Of a stretch of 64,000 nt of DNA, positions 1,093-58,417 are shown in pieces. Numbering within the stretch: the first letter of the stretch is position 1; the number at the start of each line of letters is the position of its first letter. Below the pieces are notes generated by a model. That model had not been told where the DNA came from. It saw only the letters and a list, made by a program, of their open reading frames with translations, and ran no database searches. A program made the position numbers and the translations under genes. The DNA comes from a phage. Where the stretch lies: the sequence record PZ445530.1. One strand, written 5' to 3'.

Positions 1093-3516
1093 ATGAGCAT
1101 GTGGTCGTTCGATTTTGAGTCATCCGGTTTGCTGGAAGACCCAGATCTTTATTATCACTGCGGCCTGTTTAAAGAGCTGAATAAGAACCGTTTTATGCTG
1201 TTCCTTCCTCTGAATGACCGCACACACTACTCCGAGGAGGATATAGAGAAGGCCAAGAACTTTATTCTGGCAAAGAAAACTCTTTATAAGGATTTTGAAG
1301 TTCGCATAGCAGATTTTTCGGAGTTGGAAGGTTGGCTTACAGGAAATTCCGACTGGTCACCAACAGCTTTGAACTGCCATAACTGCTACAGTTATGACTT
1401 TATGCTGATGGAGAGATTATCCGGTATTCATTTTGATATGTTCCGTGATCCTAAATGTATGGGGACTATCAACGACCACCAGGTTAACCTGTTTGATACG
1501 TTGGCGATGAGCCGAATCTTGTGGCCTGATCGCCCTTTACCAAAAGGTTGTCCGGACTCCGTATTCAACCCGGTTACTAAGAAAATGCAGCCTGTTGGTC
1601 CTCACGGCCTTATGGCATGGGGCTACGCCCTTGGTAACCAGAAAGTTCAAATTGATGATTGGCGCGATCTTCCGTTGTGGAAGTATGTGGATCGTGTATT
1701 CGAGGACGTTATCATCCAGGAGCTACTCTGGAAAGAGCTGGTAGCGGAATCAAAAGGTGTATTCTACGGCAAATCTGACATGCAGAACTTTATGTACGAT
1801 CCTGCCAAAGAGAAGCCGAAAGGGTTCAAGAAGATCACCTGGAAGAACGCATTGCGCCGGGGTATGCTGCAACACTTCCTGATGGAGCTGCAGGCCCGTC
1901 AGGGTGTGTATTTTGACATAGATGGAGCTATTGCTTTACGTGACCGTTGCGATGCGTGGATGAAAGAAATCGCTGATCGTGTTGAACCACAACTGCCTTT
2001 AAAAGAGCTGTCAATGTCTCAGCGGCCCAAGTTCCCTGAAAAGCCGTTTAACCAAGATGGGACAATCTCTAATAATGGTTGGAAATGGTTAAAAGATAAG
2101 CTTGGCTATCCTGTGGACATGAGTGCTTTAGAGTTCAAAGCCCCACCTAAGCGAGCATTTACCTCTACAGGAGATGTCAGTAAGATGGGGATAAAATGGT
2201 GTGAAGAGATGGGCTGCAAAGACCACGATAAGATGGCTGATTTCTTGAGAGGCTATATTAAGGGCACCTCCACACCACAACCTTTACCTAAAGAGCTGAT
2301 GGATCAGGCAATAAGCGATCTGCAGCAGAAGCGAATGCCTGACTGCAAGATACCTATGAAAATCAGCAATCAGGACGATATTAAGCGATACCTGATCAGT
2401 GCTGGTTGGCTTCCGACAATGTGGAGAACTAAGGATGTAACTAAAGACAGCAAGAAGAAAGCTTTACCTGATGCAGATGTTGATGCACGAGTATATGCAT
2501 ATATGGACGAGCTTTTGGAGTCAGAGTATTGTGACCTAATTATCAACTTCTGGAACAAAACTGATGCTAAGTTCCAGACAACCGTGCACAAGTTCCGAAG
2601 CTTTCCTAACTCCGAAAGGATTAAAAAGGAAGTATTCGGGAAAATACGTAGAAAAGCTAGGGCACTTATTACTTCTCCGCAACTGAAAGATACGTTTGGA
2701 CACCTGTGTCCGAATCTTGAAAAATTGAACGGAGAGATGGCTAAAGATATCGTCTTATGGTTATCATTGCGAAACCGCAGATCGGTACTTGATCCAATCA
2801 AGGAGGATAAGGTTGACACTGGTCTTCTTAATCACCCACGTTTGAAGATTGACCATAAGCTTCCTGCTAAAAGCTCTGGATTAACAAACACTTCCAGACA
2901 GAAACACAGTATTTGTGCAAACATGCCTAAACCCTCTCCTAAAGTGGTTATGGGTAAAGAGATGCGTAGCTTGTGGGGTGTTCCTCCAGGATACTTTGAG
3001 ATCGGTATCGACGGGTCCAACTTAGAGCAGCTTATCGGGGCTTGGGGTGCCTTTGAGTTCGACAACGGCCTGTATTACGATGTTGTAAGTAACGGAGACG
3101 CACACCAAAACAATGCTGAGGCATATACAAAAGTAGCAGGCAGAGAGGTGTCCCGTAACGACGGTAAACCTATCACGTATGGGGTTATGTACGGGGCACA
3201 AAAAGATAAAGTTGCAGATATGCTGGACATCTCTCCAGAGTTGGGACAAAGGGTAATCGATGCGCTTTGGGATGCCAACCCTGGTCTTAAGGGCCGTAAA
3301 GAGGATCTGGAGAAATTCTGGGAAGCAACGGGTAAGAAGTTTATCTACTCTTTTGATGGTCATGCCATCTGGACCCGATCTAAACACTCTTTACTTAATG
3401 CATACCAACAGAATGGTGGTGCATCGCTGTGTGACTTGGTTGGGATACTTATGCACCACCAAATGGTGAAGCGTGGGTGGTACGATGAAGGTGTTCGTCG
3501 TATTATCTATTACCAT
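1093..3516 (+). CDS. DNA polymerase family A, exon 1 (3'-5' exonuclease + polymerase motifs A/B)
   Basis: Exo I-like FDFESSG at N-terminus; motif A-like GIDGSNLEQL; motif B-like KPITYGVMYG; ORF stops shortly after, before motif C; SD ggagaa upstream. Confidence 0.8.
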
Positions 3517-4358
3517 AAATAACATTGTGGCTTCGTGCAGTGATGCACGTCGAAAACCTCTTTAATTGACGGGAAGGCTAAGTTGACTTTTACACCTAAA
3601 CATGGTAAAAGCTCAATATGCTAATCCGCAGCGAAGACTAAAGGGGTGTAGTTAAAATGGCTAGATCAGTTGAGTATCACGGATATACCGTGTTTGATGA
3701 TGGAACAATACCTTTATCGAAACGTGATCATACAACAATGTTTTGTTTTGATAATGGTCGAGGTTACCTTTGCGTAACCATGTTCATCGAGGGGAAGCAG
3801 TGCACAAAAGGTGTCCACCACTTGGTTGCTGAATGCTTTGTATCAAACCCTGATCCTGAAAGGCTCACATGGGTGAACCATAAGGACGGAAACAAATACA
3901 ACAATGCATACTGGAACCTTGAATGGACCACCCCTGGTGGAAATATCAAACACGCTTATGATAATGACCTCAGAGTAAGGCCAGTCGGTGAGTATAATGC
4001 CAACGCTGTACTGACCGAGGATGAGGTAACGGAGATTTGCGAACTGTTACAAAGTGGTTTACGACAATGCGAGATTAGGGATCTTGGGTATCCTTATGAG
4101 ACGGTCAGAGCCATAAAGCAAAGAAGACAGTGGAAACATATCTCTAAAAACTACACCTGGTAGTAACGTTCAGAGACTATCGAAAGCATAGCGCCAACAT
4201 AAATTGGTGCGAAGAAGCGAGTAGAGTAGACCAGCAAGTGCGGTCGAAATGGGAGGTGCCTTGGTAACAAGGTAGTGAGATAGTCCGATCCATACAGGAA
4301 ACTGTATGGCTGTGCACGTAATGGTGCGGGGTAGCTTAACGACCTACCTGAACTATTG
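3517..4358 (+). mobile_element. Group I self-splicing intron in DNA polymerase gene, carrying HNH homing endonuclease ORF
   Basis: P-like aattgacgggaagg 3564-3577, Q taatccgcagcgaag 3622-3636, R gttcagagacta 4168-4179, S gagatagtcc 4277-4286; exon 1 ends in U (3516), intron ends in G (4358); joining 3516 to 4359 restores pol motif C (YHDEYQ). Confidence 0.7.
3657..4163 (+). CDS. HNH homing endonuclease (intron-encoded)
   Basis: HNH_3-like VNHKDGNKYNNAYWNLEW motif; sits between intron Q and R elements; SD aaagggg upstream. Confidence 0.8.
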   Translation: MARSVEYHGYTVFDDGTIPLSKRDHTTMFCFDNGRGYLCVTMFIEGKQCTKGVHHLVAECFVSNPDPERLTWVNHKDGNKYNNAYWNLEWTTPGGNIKHAYDNDLRVRPVGEYNANAVLTEDEVTEICELLQSGLRQCEIRDLGYPYETVRAIKQRRQWKHISKNYTW

Positions 4359-4712
4359 GATGAGTACCAACTTCAAGTCCCTGACACACCGAAGTATAAG
4401 ACTGTGTACACCTTCGACACAATTGAAGAATTGGAAGCATTTAAGGCAGAGCAGGAGGCCAAACTTCATGTGTTCGACGGTCATAAGTACAAAAAGGCAC
4501 GCAAGGATGAAAACGGAAACGAAGTGGTTGACAGAGACGGAAACACGGTGTACGATCCTATCTTGAACGATGACGGAAAGCTTGAACTTATCTGGAGTCC
4601 TGTGGGCGAAATGGTGGTACATTGCTTCTGGCAAGCTTCTAAAATGATGGGAGTCCCGTTCCAGATCACAGGTGAATACTTGTGTGGTCGTAATTGGGGT
4701 GATTGTCACTAA
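4359..4712 (+). CDS. DNA polymerase family A, exon 2 (motif C and C-terminus)
   Basis: In-frame continuation after intron; begins DEYQLQV giving HDE motif C at splice junction; ends with terminal His as in family A polymerases; no SD or ATG of its own. Confidence 0.65.
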   Translation, partial: DEYQLQVPDTPKYKTVYTFDTIEELEAFKAEQEAKLHVFDGHKYKKARKDENGNEVVDRDGNTVYDPILNDDGKLELIWSPVGEMVVHCFWQASKMMGVPFQITGEYLCGRNWGDCH

Positions 4713-4761
4713 TGTAAACTATCAACACATGGAAGTGTTGTTGAGCAAAGAGGAGACTTTT

Positions 4762-5046
4762 ATGGTAGTAGAACCAACAAAAACATTTACATCTATGACT
4801 ATCCCTGTTATTATGCAGGTGGAGTGTGTTCAGGTATCTCAAGTGTGGCCTGGTACCAAAATCCCAACAGGGCCTGATTTCTTTCAGGTTGGGAAAGTGT
4901 ACAATGTCTGGAAGGCACCAGATTGTTACCCTTTCATCAAAGATGACCGTGGAATGTTGTGGTATCTTGGAAATGATTTGACACTGCACCTTGGGAATGT
5001 TATTATTGCAGTATTCAGACTTAACAAGAAGGAGACCGATCAATGA
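4762..5046 (+). CDS. hypothetical protein
   Basis: ORF with SD agaggag 7 nt before ATG 4762. Confidence 0.45.
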   Translation: MVVEPTKTFTSMTIPVIMQVECVQVSQVWPGTKIPTGPDFFQVGKVYNVWKAPDCYPFIKDDRGMLWYLGNDLTLHLGNVIIAVFRLNKKETDQ

Positions 5047-5270
5047 CAACTTTGGTTAAAGCTACTTTTGTAGAAGAAAAGATGACAGACCTGTCATTCT
5101 TTAAAGAAGGAAAGACCTACGAGGTTTATTACGATAAAAATCGTGCAAACAAGATGATTAAAGACGAGGAAGGGATTGCCTGGTTTATCTCCCATCTGGC
5201 AAACGGTGAGTATCATATCTACGGAACCACCCTGCTTGCCAAGTTTGTAGCTGTAGAAGAGGACCTATGA
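5043..5270 (+). CDS. hypothetical protein
   Basis: ORF with SD aaggag; start overlaps upstream stop (ATGA). Confidence 0.5.
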   Translation: MTTLVKATFVEEKMTDLSFFKEGKTYEVYYDKNRANKMIKDEEGIAWFISHLANGEYHIYGTTLLAKFVAVEEDL

Positions 5271-5461
5271 AAGTAAAGTATCTTGCTGAAGGTATGAGTA
5301 GGTATTTTACCCTTGGCGAAGAATATTGGCCCTTTACAAGCAACGGCGATGTCTACGTGAAAGATAATTTCGGAACGCCGTGGTTTCTGCACTCTAATGG
5401 GCTGGGATACTCCATTTACTGCGGTGCAGTGAACAACACAACTCTTGCAGAGTTCGTTTAG
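5267..5461 (+). CDS. hypothetical protein
   Basis: ORF, start overlaps upstream stop. Confidence 0.45.
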   Translation: MKVKYLAEGMSRYFTLGEEYWPFTSNGDVYVKDNFGTPWFLHSNGLGYSIYCGAVNNTTLAEFV

Positions 5462-5471
5462 AGGAGGTAGG

Positions 5472-5843
5472 ATGTTAGTAAAAGGTACCCACACAGTCAA
5501 ACAACGTATTGAAGTTGAGATTGATGATTGTGAGCTGAAGCATATTCTACGGTCATGTTCTAACGTTTTGCTCCTTAGCATTCTCCAAGAGCGAGCGGAG
5601 AACGAGTTCTTAAATGCATTGGCAGGCCGTCCGGGTGACTTTTGTGTGCGTAAGCGTGGTGACAACAAGTCATGGCTGTGGGAAATCGATGCCGACTGGG
5701 ATTACCACAAAAATGAGGGTATAGATGAGCCTATTCGTGAACTGACGGACAAAGAGATTCAGATGTACAATGAAGTTTGTCATTGGGCAACACGCCAACA
5801 AATTTACCTCGACCCTGTGTGGCTGATTGAAAATAGCCATTGA
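5472..5843 (+). CDS. hypothetical protein
   Basis: ORF; SD gaggagg before ATG 5472. Confidence 0.5.
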   Translation: MLVKGTHTVKQRIEVEIDDCELKHILRSCSNVLLLSILQERAENEFLNALAGRPGDFCVRKRGDNKSWLWEIDADWDYHKNEGIDEPIRELTDKEIQMYNEVCHWATRQQIYLDPVWLIENSH

Positions 5844-5919
5844 CAAGAAGTAAGATTAGATATAAGATGCTTCACACAAACAGATCGGTGATTTTTAAAT
5901 AACTAAGGAGACTGCCAAG

Positions 5920-6174
5920 ATGAAAATTACTTTGAAGCCAGATTGCGTTGCAAATGACCGAGCTTTTAAAGATTGCCCAGTCGGTGCAATTTATGAAGCA
6001 GAGTTTTGTGAGAACCCTCTGGTAAAAGCCCTTCTGGAAGAAGGGGCCCCTTTATCACAAGAAGAGATCGATGAGCTGGAAAACTCAGCACAGTGCCTTA
6101 CCTTTAAAGATGATGAAGGAGACTCTGTCTGGTGCACTGTTAATGAAGTCGTTTTTGTAAAACCTGAACATTAA
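5920..6174 (+). CDS. hypothetical protein (member of tandem paralog pair)
   Basis: SD aaggag; shares KPD..D.AF.DC and KDD.GD.V.CT motifs with next gene. Confidence 0.5.
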   Translation: MKITLKPDCVANDRAFKDCPVGAIYEAEFCENPLVKALLEEGAPLSQEEIDELENSAQCLTFKDDEGDSVWCTVNEVVFVKPEH

Positions 6175-6237
6175 TACTTGACAACAGCGATAGGACCTAG
6201 TACAATGGTCCTATCAAAACGAAAGGGGACCACAACA

Positions 6238-6510
6238 ATGACCAAACAATACCAACGAATTAAAGCCAAGGTTAAGCCAGACTATCTGGAGAAGGACTCT
6301 GCTTTTCGGGACTGCACAGCTGACAAAGTTTATACAGGGGCCGTCCTGTTGAACGATGAACTTGAAGTAGATATTCTGGGTAAAGAGGCAACTATTAAGG
6401 ACGACCAAGGCGATTATGTTTGCTGCACCACACGTGAGCTAGAAATCTTAGAATACTTCGGTGAAATCTTCACCTCTCTTGATGATTACTTAGATGATGA
6501 GGAAGCGTGA
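6238..6510 (+). CDS. hypothetical protein (paralog of 5920..6174)
   Basis: SD aaagggg before ATG 6238; motif similarity to upstream gene. Confidence 0.5.
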   Translation: MTKQYQRIKAKVKPDYLEKDSAFRDCTADKVYTGAVLLNDELEVDILGKEATIKDDQGDYVCCTTRELEILEYFGEIFTSLDDYLDDEEA

Positions 6511-6899
6511 TGAAAAATATTTGGGATATCGATATCTTTGAAGCCTCTAAGCTTGATGGTGCTGATGGAGTGATTATGGTGTCTGATGGCAAGGCAACAC
6601 TAACTTCCGGAGATATCATCTATGCCTTGGACGAGCTGGCGCTTCTGAAATCTACCGGTAACACTTTGGAGGAGCGTCTTCAAGGATTCGCTTTCAAAGA
6701 AGGTACAAATACAGCCATGATGTGCACCACACGGACAGTTCAGGTTGGTAACGGTGTCTATATGATTATTGCTGTGTGTCCTAAATTCAGCAACGTCAAC
6801 AAAGATGATGCTGACGCGGTCAACGATGTGGTTGTTCTCTTCGTGGGTGACGCTATGGCAGATCTGATGAATGCAGGAGAAGCAGCAAATGAAGACTGA
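6507..6899 (+). CDS. hypothetical protein
   Basis: ORF, overlapping start/stop with neighbours. Confidence 0.5.
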   Translation: MMKNIWDIDIFEASKLDGADGVIMVSDGKATLTSGDIIYALDELALLKSTGNTLEERLQGFAFKEGTNTAMMCTTRTVQVGNGVYMIIAVCPKFSNVNKDDADAVNDVVVLFVGDAMADLMNAGEAANED

Positions 6900-7191
6900 A
6901 AACATCACCCCAGCAGGGTTCTTAAAAGTATACCGTGAACTGCTATATACTACAGAGGACAGTGTTCTAGAGTATCCAGAATATCTTTTGCTGTATAAGT
7001 ATCTGCAGGAGGCTGGTGAAAATCTGCCAGTTAGTGCAGAAGGTGGTCCAAACTGGATATACAGTGCATGGAGAAAGGTTGACATTCTCCCAGACCCAGG
7101 TAAAGATATGGTAGTTTGGCAGCTTATCAACAACATCGGGATTCCAATCTTTGATGAAGCTGTTAAAATCTATTTTGAACTTGACGATTAA
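6889..7191 (+). CDS. hypothetical protein
   Basis: ORF; SD gcaggag before ATG 6889. Confidence 0.45.
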   Translation: MKTENITPAGFLKVYRELLYTTEDSVLEYPEYLLLYKYLQEAGENLPVSAEGGPNWIYSAWRKVDILPDPGKDMVVWQLINNIGIPIFDEAVKIYFELDD

Positions 7192-7208
7192 TATCAGGAG
7201 ACCTTAAG

Positions 7209-7454
7209 ATGACTGAAGCAGTTGCTCGCGCAGGACAGAAAGTACGTTGTGTTGAAGTAGGTTTTGGTGGCAAAGGGTGTCAAAACTTGACTCAAGGTAA
7301 GGAATACGCTGTTATCTCTGGGGGCGGAGACGAAAGTATTGTGTTCGAGGGCCACATCCTGGATGCTGAAAACTTTGAAATCTTTGACGACGATGGGGAC
7401 CCGATCACCTGCCTGCTGGACGGGAATTGGGGAACTTTCGAAGTGATTGGCTAA
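7209..7454 (+). CDS. hypothetical protein
   Basis: ORF; SD caggag upstream. Confidence 0.5.
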   Translation: MTEAVARAGQKVRCVEVGFGGKGCQNLTQGKEYAVISGGGDESIVFEGHILDAENFEIFDDDGDPITCLLDGNWGTFEVIG

Positions 7455-7537
7455 CAAATACCTATTGTAATTTACAGAAGGGGATGCTAAAATAGTGTCT
7501 CCTTCTATGTTGTTCAAATAAAATCGGAGATTCCATA

Positions 7538-7906
7538 ATGGAACAAATGAACGATCAAGCGTCGGTTGCGATGAACGAGCAAGAACAACCTCAAGAATTT
7601 TTCTTAGGGTTAAGTAAAGATCAAGTGTCTCTTCTGCTAGTGCTTTCTTCTTTCATGGGAAGACTTCAGGAGCTCACACAACAGCCAGAGGCTGAACAAT
7701 TATTTCAGGCTCTGCGTGAAGAAGAAAAATATCGTCGTTTGGACTATGCCTTGGGTTGGGTAGCTCAACAACGAGATATGCTGATGGCCCTCTCTGGGAC
7801 CACAAGTTTTGCAATGGGCCTGTTGGCTCAAGTTCAGGACAAATTAATTCAAGCAGGGTTTGCACACACGGCAAACACTAACGAAGAACAAGGAGACAAA
7901 GAATGA
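7538..7906 (+). CDS. hypothetical protein
   Basis: ORF; SD cggag upstream. Confidence 0.5.
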   Translation: MEQMNDQASVAMNEQEQPQEFFLGLSKDQVSLLLVLSSFMGRLQELTQQPEAEQLFQALREEEKYRRLDYALGWVAQQRDMLMALSGTTSFAMGLLAQVQDKLIQAGFAHTANTNEEQGDKE

Positions 7907-9129
7907 GCGTTATTCAACAATTCGCTAACCCGATGAATCCGCGTGAAACTGTTTTACTGGCTCACGGCATGATTAAACGCGTCAGCATCAAGCCTATCAA
8001 AGGTGCTGATCCTACAACAGGTATTAAAACCACTGTGTGGCAAGGTAAGAAAATTGAGTCCAGCCACACCATCTCTTTACTGATTTCTGAACTGGATTCC
8101 TCTGATAACCTACTTCAAGGTGGTGAAGAAGTTTGGATCAGTATGGGCGATAAGCTGCTTAAACCGGGTCATCAAGACTCTGTCTCTGTTAAAATTGATG
8201 ACAAGTGGGAAACCGTAACGCCAGGATGGATCGTAAATATCCCTTTGAAGGCAAACGAGCATAACGGTAAGACCTACTACAAAGGCTCACTGGCTAAGAT
8301 GGTTAAGCTGGGTGCAGGAGAGGCTCCAGCAGCGACTCAGCAGCAAAAACAGCAACAAGGTGCACAATCACAAGGCCAGAAGCAGAAACCTCAGCAGAAT
8401 GCCAATCAGGACGTTTTACGCATCTATGGTGATGTGACTCAGATTGTTGGCAACGTGGTTACTGTTAATGACCACAAGATTGGCGAAGGTGCTATGGTTG
8501 TAACTGATGAGCAGCTTAAAGACCTGGTGGTAGGTGGTCGTGTTGCAGCCATTGTTGACAAAGACACCGGAAACATTATCAGTGGTTTCAAAGCCTATCC
8601 TCCTAAGGCAGAGAACGGTACTCAAGGCTCTGGTGGCAAGCGTAAATCCTCTTACGACCCTATCGGTGTGGAAACGGGGCATAGCATCAATGCGTTGCAA
8701 ATCATCCTGGATCGCGGGTTTAAGGTAGACGACCCACTAGGAGTGGCTAAAACACTACACGTAGTCACTATTGAGCTTAAGAAAGAGTATGCTCAAGCCA
8801 CCAACCGAACTGAAGATGAAGTAGGTGCCAGTGTCGGTAATGCGGTGTTGAACGCTTGTCGCCGTATTGACAAGAAAACGAAAGTTGATGATTTTGCAGC
8901 GGCAATTACTGCAGAAGCAAAAGATGTCTTGACTAATCTGGCTGAGCCGTTGTACGATTGGATCAAGAACGGTGCTGGGTCAACTGACCATCAAGAACCT
9001 CAGGCTGCCAAACAGGAAGCAGCTCCACAGCAAAACACTGTAGACGCTCCTCCTGTAAATGATGGGGAAGATGACCCGATGGATCAGAATCCAGCACAGT
9101 ACGCCTTTGATGATGACATCCCATTCTAA
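7903..9129 (+). CDS. Putative single-stranded DNA-binding protein
   Basis: C-terminus AFDDDIPF matches the acidic SSB tip (DDDIPF); Gln-rich linker; position in replication block. Confidence 0.5.
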   Translation: MSVIQQFANPMNPRETVLLAHGMIKRVSIKPIKGADPTTGIKTTVWQGKKIESSHTISLLISELDSSDNLLQGGEEVWISMGDKLLKPGHQDSVSVKIDDKWETVTPGWIVNIPLKANEHNGKTYYKGSLAKMVKLGAGEAPAATQQQKQQQGAQSQGQKQKPQQNANQDVLRIYGDVTQIVGNVVTVNDHKIGEGAMVVTDEQLKDLVVGGRVAAIVDKDTGNIISGFKAYPPKAENGTQGSGGKRKSSYDPIGVETGHSINALQIILDRGFKVDDPLGVAKTLHVVTIELKKEYAQATNRTEDEVGASVGNAVLNACRRIDKKTKVDDFAAAITAEAKDVLTNLAEPLYDWIKNGAGSTDHQEPQAAKQEAAPQQNTVDAPPVNDGEDDPMDQNPAQYAFDDDIPF

Positions 9130-57920: not shown

Positions 57921-58370
57921 ATGAATGCGGGAATCATCGCCGAGTGGAACTCTGTTGTGTCACCTGCAGACACTGTGTTCCACTTGGGAGATATTGCGTG
58001 CACTAATGATAAGAATATCAACAACTTACTTCCAGATATTCTAAATATGTTGAACGGACATATTATTCTTGTTCGTGGCAACCATGACACAAGGACGACT
58101 GTCAGAATTATGAAAGAGTTCGGTCATGAGGTTGTAGATTATTACGAGCTTCGCCACAACAAGAATTTAATCTGTATGAGCCATTACCAGTTTGCAAAGT
58201 GGAACAGAAAGCCTCACGGATCAGTCCAACTGTTCGGTCATGCTCACGGAACCACACAACAGTTGTTTGGCAGGCAGCTTGATGTCGGTTGGGATGTGTG
58301 GGGGAGACTCTTACCATTAGAAGAGGCATACCGTATTGCAATGAGTTTTGATATTGACAGCAGGGAGTAA
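57921..58370 (+). pseudogene. Calcineurin-like metallophosphoesterase lacking N-terminal motif I
   Basis: Motifs II-V present (HLGDIA, GNHD, SHY, GHAHG) but DxH motif I absent; no SD; track N-terminal extension is antisense to Sir2 fragment. Confidence 0.5.
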
Positions 58371-58417
58371 TCCCTGCTATTTTAAAGAAAATTGCCACAC
58401 AAGGAGAATCAGGAGAT

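Follow-up and report, generated by a model that had tools for sequence, protein, structure and literature searches.

Two short open reading frames (ORFs) stand one behind the other on the plus strand of a 64,000-nucleotide stretch of phage DNA (sequence record PZ445530.1), which is called the window here. Their products look alike, and the locus therefore raises the question of whether they are true paralogs, how old their duplication is, and what the pair does for the phage. The first, gene A (5920–6174, + strand), encodes 84 amino acids and is the ortholog of FFH2 ORF199 and rV5 ORF220. The second, gene B (6238–6510, + strand), encodes 90 amino acids and is the ortholog of FFH2 ORF198 and rV5 ORF219. 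Both products are acidic, with a pI of about 4.2.

The window comes from an rV5-like E. coli phage of the genus Vequintavirus, a model group that is widely used in E. coli O157 typing and in biocontrol. Its region 4300–7600 is 98.5% identical to Escherichia phage FFH2, 90–99% identical to about 113 other rV5-like Vequintavirus phages, and 80–90% identical to six more. Sixteen GenBank records (MG0656xx) named 'Campylobacter phage', with C. jejuni as the host, are 96–98% identical to E. coli rV5-like phages here, and their host labels look doubtful. Genes A and B are placed in a run of small plus-strand ORFs that extends from the DNA polymerase gene to the gene of a 408-residue protein. On the 5′ side of this block are the family-A DNA polymerase gene (1093–3522) and an HNH endonuclease gene (3657–4163), together with a 118-residue polymerase-fragment ORF annotated as 'DNA polymerase' (4356–4712). 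The polymerase thus looks split, with the endonuclease gene between its two parts. In a distant relative, the 145-kb metagenomic contig L004, one longer polymerase gene leads directly into the small ORFs without the HNH insert. On the 3′ side is the 408-residue ORF (7903–9129), whose product has no match in the family libraries and ends in ...AFDDDIPF, which we take to resemble the tip of the SSB C-terminus in E. coli (DFDDDIPF). A putative ssDNA-binding protein is annotated in one related genome, somewhere inside the 3.3-kb match. Every small ORF of the block is a 'hypothetical protein' in the GenBank records of the relatives, and the rV5 genome paper, the CRISPRi-ART and Hachiman/EdH4 papers, and a literature search on Vequintavirus give no data on A or B.

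Both ORFs have the features of translated genes. Gene A has the Shine-Dalgarno sequence AAGGAG 9 nt 5′ of its start. For gene B, the evidence supports a start at the ATG of 6238, which has the Shine-Dalgarno sequence AAAGGGGA; the beginning of the protein, MxxQ(Y)QRIKAKVK, is kept in the divergent ortholog of L004, and the longer starts given for B in some GenBank records fall inside or 5′ of a promoter −10 box. The stop codon of B overlaps the start of the next gene, and B therefore appears to head a small operon. Searches with tblastn find gene A in 116 phage records and gene B in 116 at a coverage of at least 80%. Conservation in the genus is 87% or more for each protein, and the pN/pS ratios are 0.13 for A (7 distinct alleles) and 0.17 for B (10 distinct alleles). 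The occurrence in 116 of 116 relatives, these low ratios, and the L004 orthologs all indicate that both copies are functional. A and B are real protein-coding genes kept by purifying selection throughout Vequintavirus and in L004. In tblastn and database searches, no ortholog of either is detectable in a cultured phage outside Vequintavirus.

In 114 of the 116 records, all but JLBYU08 and Alma, gene A is matched intact over 252 nt in one piece. Many frameshifted or truncated variants of A are found in metagenome assemblies, clustered at a G4C4T3 run (6035–6055 of the window). The A genes of JLBYU08 and Alma also break around this homopolymer-rich stretch, and in-frame indel variants (P0002 and P0004) occur there too. 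A frameshift hotspot with phase variation was considered and set aside: because 114 of 116 finished genomes are intact, the frameshifts most likely stem from errors of sequencing or assembly, or from rare mutants.

The two proteins are homologous. The original prediction had described a tandem paralog pair, and the ORFs are present on the plus strand as it described them, with two shared peptide blocks that agree exactly with the translations. BLASTP with compositional adjustment aligns A and B with 25 identities over 77 positions (32%), 38.5 bits, and E = 2e-10. The Smith-Waterman score (BLOSUM62) is 97, compared with a mean of 26 (sd 4.9) for shuffled sequences, which gives a z of about 14. 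None of 10,000 shuffles reaches 97; the maximum is 63 among 5000 shuffles of B and 59 among 5000 of A, so the alignment is far better than the shuffled controls against which the prediction was to be judged. Among 918 six-frame ORFs of the window, the sole phmmer match is the reciprocal pair A/B. Gene A matches the protein family phrog_12544 (E 1e-58) and gene B matches phrog_11936 (E 3e-59), while each cross-matches the family of the other at about 1e-5 and phrog_17459 at about 3e-3. The similarity at the DNA level is limited to the two conserved blocks. That the resemblance is due to chance or composition, or that the ORFs are not genes, has nothing in its favor beyond their small size; the shuffle statistics, the reciprocal PHROG matches, the conserved orthologs, and pN/pS ratios far below 1 all contradict it, and it can practically be dismissed.

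The duplication is old. In L004, A and B are neighbors within the same gene order as in the window, with A 53% and B 52% identical to the window copies, and with each only about 27–28% identical to the other type. Because L004 keeps both copies adjacent to each other, the duplication predates the split between L004 and the window. The predicted local duplication is therefore supported as a tandem event, although not as a recent one, and the pair that was to be sought in related phages is present in the 116 GenBank relatives as well as in L004. Comparison of these sequences shows A and B to be descendants of one module of about 65–70 residues that was duplicated in tandem long ago. By alignment, B consists of the minimal module plus an acidic C-terminal tail; in A, about 16 extra residues are inserted into the module, between its two conserved blocks.

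A wider family that would include neighboring ORFs was also considered, since several of them (4729–5046, 5043–5270, 5267–5461, and 7209–7454) have a similar 'G..Y ... KDDxG' look. It was rejected at the sequence level. An HMM of A and B finds nothing else in the rest of the window (best E 0.8–1.8), and the best hhalign result against eight neighbor families is P = 0.016, over 13 columns, which is not significant. At the sequence level, these four ORFs and the one at 6507–6899 show no significant similarity to the A/B module. L004 has a further tandem paralog pair in this block, at 2830–3072 and 3087–3308, both of which match the window ORF 5043–5270 (E 1e-6 and 1e-7). This window ORF weakly matches the PHROG of its own upstream neighbor.

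The module has a clear signature, (A/S)(F/L)RD(C/T)..G..Y.(A/G) ... (hydrophobic)xDDxGD, which is found family-wide. An exhaustive profile search of 1.84 billion representatives gives only 13 proteins at E ≤ 0.001, and a profile search of a 5.8-billion set gives 57 proteins at E ≤ 1. Almost all of the matches are A-type or B-type and are located on contigs of about 125–145 kb. One match, the HYR-repeat protein P0029, is spurious and driven by its repeats. In Pfam, no family reaches the cut-off for A or B, the best being unrelated DUFs (E 0.01–0.15); nothing passes the cut-offs of NCBIfam, and a sequence search of the PDB gives nothing significant.

The original prediction also emphasized conserved Cys and Asp positions. 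The Asp and Gly residues are indeed conserved family-wide, but the cysteines are conserved only within the Vequintavirus-type A/B set. Among the aligned A- and B-type sequences, the first of the two shared positions (C19 and C72 in A, C26 and C63 in B) never varies and at least 90% retain the second, which would suit small proteins that depend on a disulfide or a metal site. P0030, P0033, and the phage megetsur proteins gp9 and gp10, however, lack the second Cys, and the first is replaced by Thr in gp9, so the cysteines do not define the family. Liganding cysteines of a zinc-binding or disulfide class are thus not conserved across it. The shared cysteines are just two, with neither CxxC pairs nor His partners, and A and B are cytoplasmic. 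A cysteine-dependent function is accordingly very improbable.

Structure prediction of both products, as had been proposed, succeeded for B and not for A. The AlphaFold2 model of B is confident (pLDDT 85.6, pTM 0.73, from 41 sequences), and contains strands at residues 5–12, 32–37, 50–54, 60–64, and 68–78, and a short helix at 14–19. The model of A is poor and unusable (pLDDT 50.7, from 15 sequences). The top Foldseek matches of the B model in the PDB are SH3 domains and the prophage protein YorP, with E values of 0.14 or higher. Its BFVD neighbors are only uncharacterized phage proteins of 81–83 amino acids (Shigella phage CM1 and Edwardsiella phage MSW-3). The SH3 strand order of the predicted model, together with these structural neighbors, assigns the B module to the five-stranded SH3-like small β-barrels, a fold class and nothing closer. 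No curated Pfam SH3 or SH3-like profile scores above its gathering threshold with A or B. When the alignment is mapped on the B model, the AFRDC motif falls in the long loop after strand 1, which is the RT-loop position, and DDxGD falls in the hairpin between strands 3 and 4, which is the distal-loop position. The A insertion falls between strands 2 and 3, at the n-Src-loop position, and the acidic tail of B comes after strand 5. The insertion may be helix-prone, which is only suggested because the sole model of A is poor.

The two genes differ in their promoters. A sigma-70-like promoter of A, TTGACA-17-TAAGAT, is located at 5840–5868 (+ strand) and scores 10 of 12 in the promoter scan. The equivalent site is annotated as 'Sigma70-type promoter; P220' in the rV5 record and is conserved in eight relatives. 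It is not conserved in L004, in which A overlaps the upstream gene (ATGA) and is translationally coupled. A second sigma-70-like promoter, TTGACA-17-TACAAT, lies in the A–B spacer at 6178–6206 (+ strand), scores 11 of 12, and is found in all relatives examined, including L004 (TTGACA...TATAAT). It is a putative promoter of B and the overlapping downstream genes. Duplication of a whole unit of promoter plus gene was considered, as the distance from the −35 box to the KPD codons is 95 nt for one gene and 96 nt for the other. It was not adopted, and the match is possibly coincidental because A of L004 is promoterless and translationally coupled.

The spacer promoter is combined with a hairpin. 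A 9-bp inverted repeat, GATAGGACC at 6189–6197 and GGTCCTATC at 6207–6215 (+ strand), encloses the −10 box in its 9-nt loop. Its RNA minimum free energy is −15.3 kcal/mol, and no other promoter-like site of the window has a hairpin as stable as this. In eight sequences, 98.6% of the cells are paired and five of the nine pairs change on both sides, whereas slid controls give 29–49%. The stem of L004 is wholly different in sequence, GGGGTTAT/ATAACCCC, and lies in the same register. The G-U cells are on the plus strand, which is consistent with a hairpin in the RNA of transcripts that read through from upstream, and the hairpin may attenuate or process read-through from gene A. It has no match in Rfam. 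A promoter with a strong hairpin is found at two sites in the window, 6178 and 58354.

Some sequences have one hybrid gene, or a fusion, in place of the usual genes. In L006, an L004-like phage (Logan contig ERR14040474_4475), the pair is replaced by the hybrid gene P0044 (3001–3243, 80 amino acids). Its first 22 residues are A-type and the remainder is B-type, the crossover falls within the conserved block AFKDC..G, and the promoter of the A–B spacer is missing. This natural hybrid, which stands in for the pair, suggests that A and B could be largely redundant and kept for dosage or robustness, with one copy or a hybrid being sufficient. It is seen in a single Logan assembly contig, while both copies are kept in all 116 cultured relatives and L004, both are under purifying selection, and the A insertion and the B tail are themselves conserved. 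Because the retention is universal, redundancy is the less likely reading, and we consider it quite unlikely. A separate rearrangement is shown by P0021, from a single metagenome assembly, in which B is fused in frame to the next gene (6507–6899). This fusion corresponds to a 299-bp deletion between 11-bp direct repeats, TGCACCACACG (coding for CTTR), which are present at 6424–6434 in gene B and at 6723–6733 in the next gene.

The module comes in twos in other lineages as well. The metagenomic proteins P0030 (143 amino acids) and P0033 (154 amino acids) contain two module copies in one chain. A tblastn search with P0033 reaches Escherichia phage megetsur (Autographiviridae, Bonnellvirus), whose adjacent early genes 9 (81 amino acids) and 10 (76 amino acids), at 2501–2980 of its sequence, are colinear with P0033 (6001–6465 of its contig). 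The products gp9 and gp10 are 37% identical to each other (E 1e-9), and an HMM made from A and B sequences only matches each at about 4e-4. The pairs of Vequintavirus, Bonnellvirus, and the metagenomic fusions may go back to one duplication or to several, and neither A nor B is assigned to a particular half of the podophage pair.

A joint role of A and B is suggested by this recurrence of the module in twos: the window and Bonnellvirus have it as neighboring genes, and metagenomes have a two-domain fusion. Barrels of the SH3-like type generally bind proteins. The recurrent pairs, the covalent fusion, and this general property of the fold point to an adaptor or inhibitor. A and B might then act together, as a heterodimer or pseudo-dimer, on a host or replisome target early in infection, a proposal that we advance tentatively and hold to be possible rather than probable. 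The steps that the sequences show are the ancient tandem doubling of a single module, selection that has kept both copies, a conserved sigma-70-type promoter of B's own, the promoter of A being limited to Vequintavirus, and lineage-specific differences in loop and tail. In the proposed role, the two copies of the acidic SH3-like module would present different contact surfaces through the A-specific loop and the B-specific tail, which would amount to subfunctionalization after duplication. The single hybrid of L006 counts against joint action, and implies either that the function does not strictly depend on two distinct partners or that the hybrid can homodimerize. The recurrent pairs may also simply reflect the ease of tandem duplication in phage early regions. 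It also counts against the proposal that the searches of PHROGs, Pfam, NCBIfam, and the PDB gave no homolog with an annotated function; the PHROGs matches are only to families without an assigned function.

Alternatively, A and B are independent effectors that have diverged toward different targets, such as host factors or defense proteins in an arms race, with no interaction between them and with their adjacency being a relic of the duplication. A and B differ in the C-terminal tail and at the usual ligand-contact site of SH3-like domains, where the A insertion lies between strands 2 and 3. The promoter-hairpin element gives B a transcription unit of its own, so that differential expression is possible, and the two proteins are about 30% identical to each other, yet each is highly conserved in the genus. 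That three lineages have the module in twos, one of them as a covalent fusion, is however not obviously expected for independent effectors, and pN/pS ratios of 0.13–0.17 give no sign of positive selection. We regard independent action as the main rival, about as probable as the joint role and with the balance still against it.

The best explanation as a whole combines the old tandem duplication, its retention under selection, the SH3-like module, and a joint adaptor or inhibitor role, and we give this combination about an even chance of being correct. A stronger form makes the module an obligate two-copy unit, in which a pseudo-symmetric SH3-like heterodimer, covalently fused in some phages and split into separate genes in Vequintavirus and Bonnellvirus, would be an early effector that binds a particular host protein, for instance a factor of defense or DNA metabolism, and neutralizes or hijacks it. 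This form is unlikely; if it is true, the unit is an undescribed early phage effector. On present evidence A and B are an uncharacterized, ordinary family of duplicated early ORFans of phages, which is of modest interest and shows no new mechanism. Two PHROG families without an assigned function and their distant podophage relatives can be joined in a single module family, for which a fold is predicted and the signature is clear. The tendency of the module to come in twos gives a concrete and testable basis for annotating a conserved early gene pair of rV5-like phages.

When compared to known families and systems, the pair differs from its present classification. PHROGs files A and B as the separate families phrog_12544 and phrog_11936, which like phrog_17459 have no assigned function, whereas A and B are demonstrably homologous. 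The fold class to which the B module is assigned comprises eukaryotic SH3, bacterial SH3-like/GW, KOW, Tudor, MIB/HERC2, PsaE, and YorP of the prophage SPbeta. The megetsur pair and the fused proteins P0030 and P0033 share with A and B the RD(C/T)..G..Y ... DDxGD module in two adjacent copies, and gp9 and gp10 are likewise encoded in the early region, 5′ of the primase gene. In contrast, they are only about 30–38% identical to A and B over 45–55 residues, and have neither the second Cys nor the insertion of A nor the tail of B.

The A–B spacer resembles the promoter-early stem-loop (PeSL) cassettes of T4-type phages, in which a strong early promoter, together with a stem-loop, is located between small ORFans (PMC2839356, PMC4122927). 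A stem-loop over the −10 box is one of the two commonest positions in PeSL, and G-T pairs are tolerated (Arbiol et al. 2010, PMC2839356). The spacer element differs in belonging to an rV5-like myovirus and not to a T4-type phage. It also has no repeated sequence family in the window, the only comparable hairpin being that at 58354; the promoter-like site with a hairpin there (58354–58383) may be another PeSL-like element. The architecture at the A–B spacer is otherwise that of PeSL, as shown by the TTGACA-17-TACAAT promoter, the 9-bp stem round its −10 box, and the covariation of this stem. As in PeSL, the stop codon of an upstream ORFan is followed by a strong sigma-70-like −35/−10 pair, a stem-loop over the −10 box, and, after these, a small ORFan's Shine-Dalgarno sequence and start codon.
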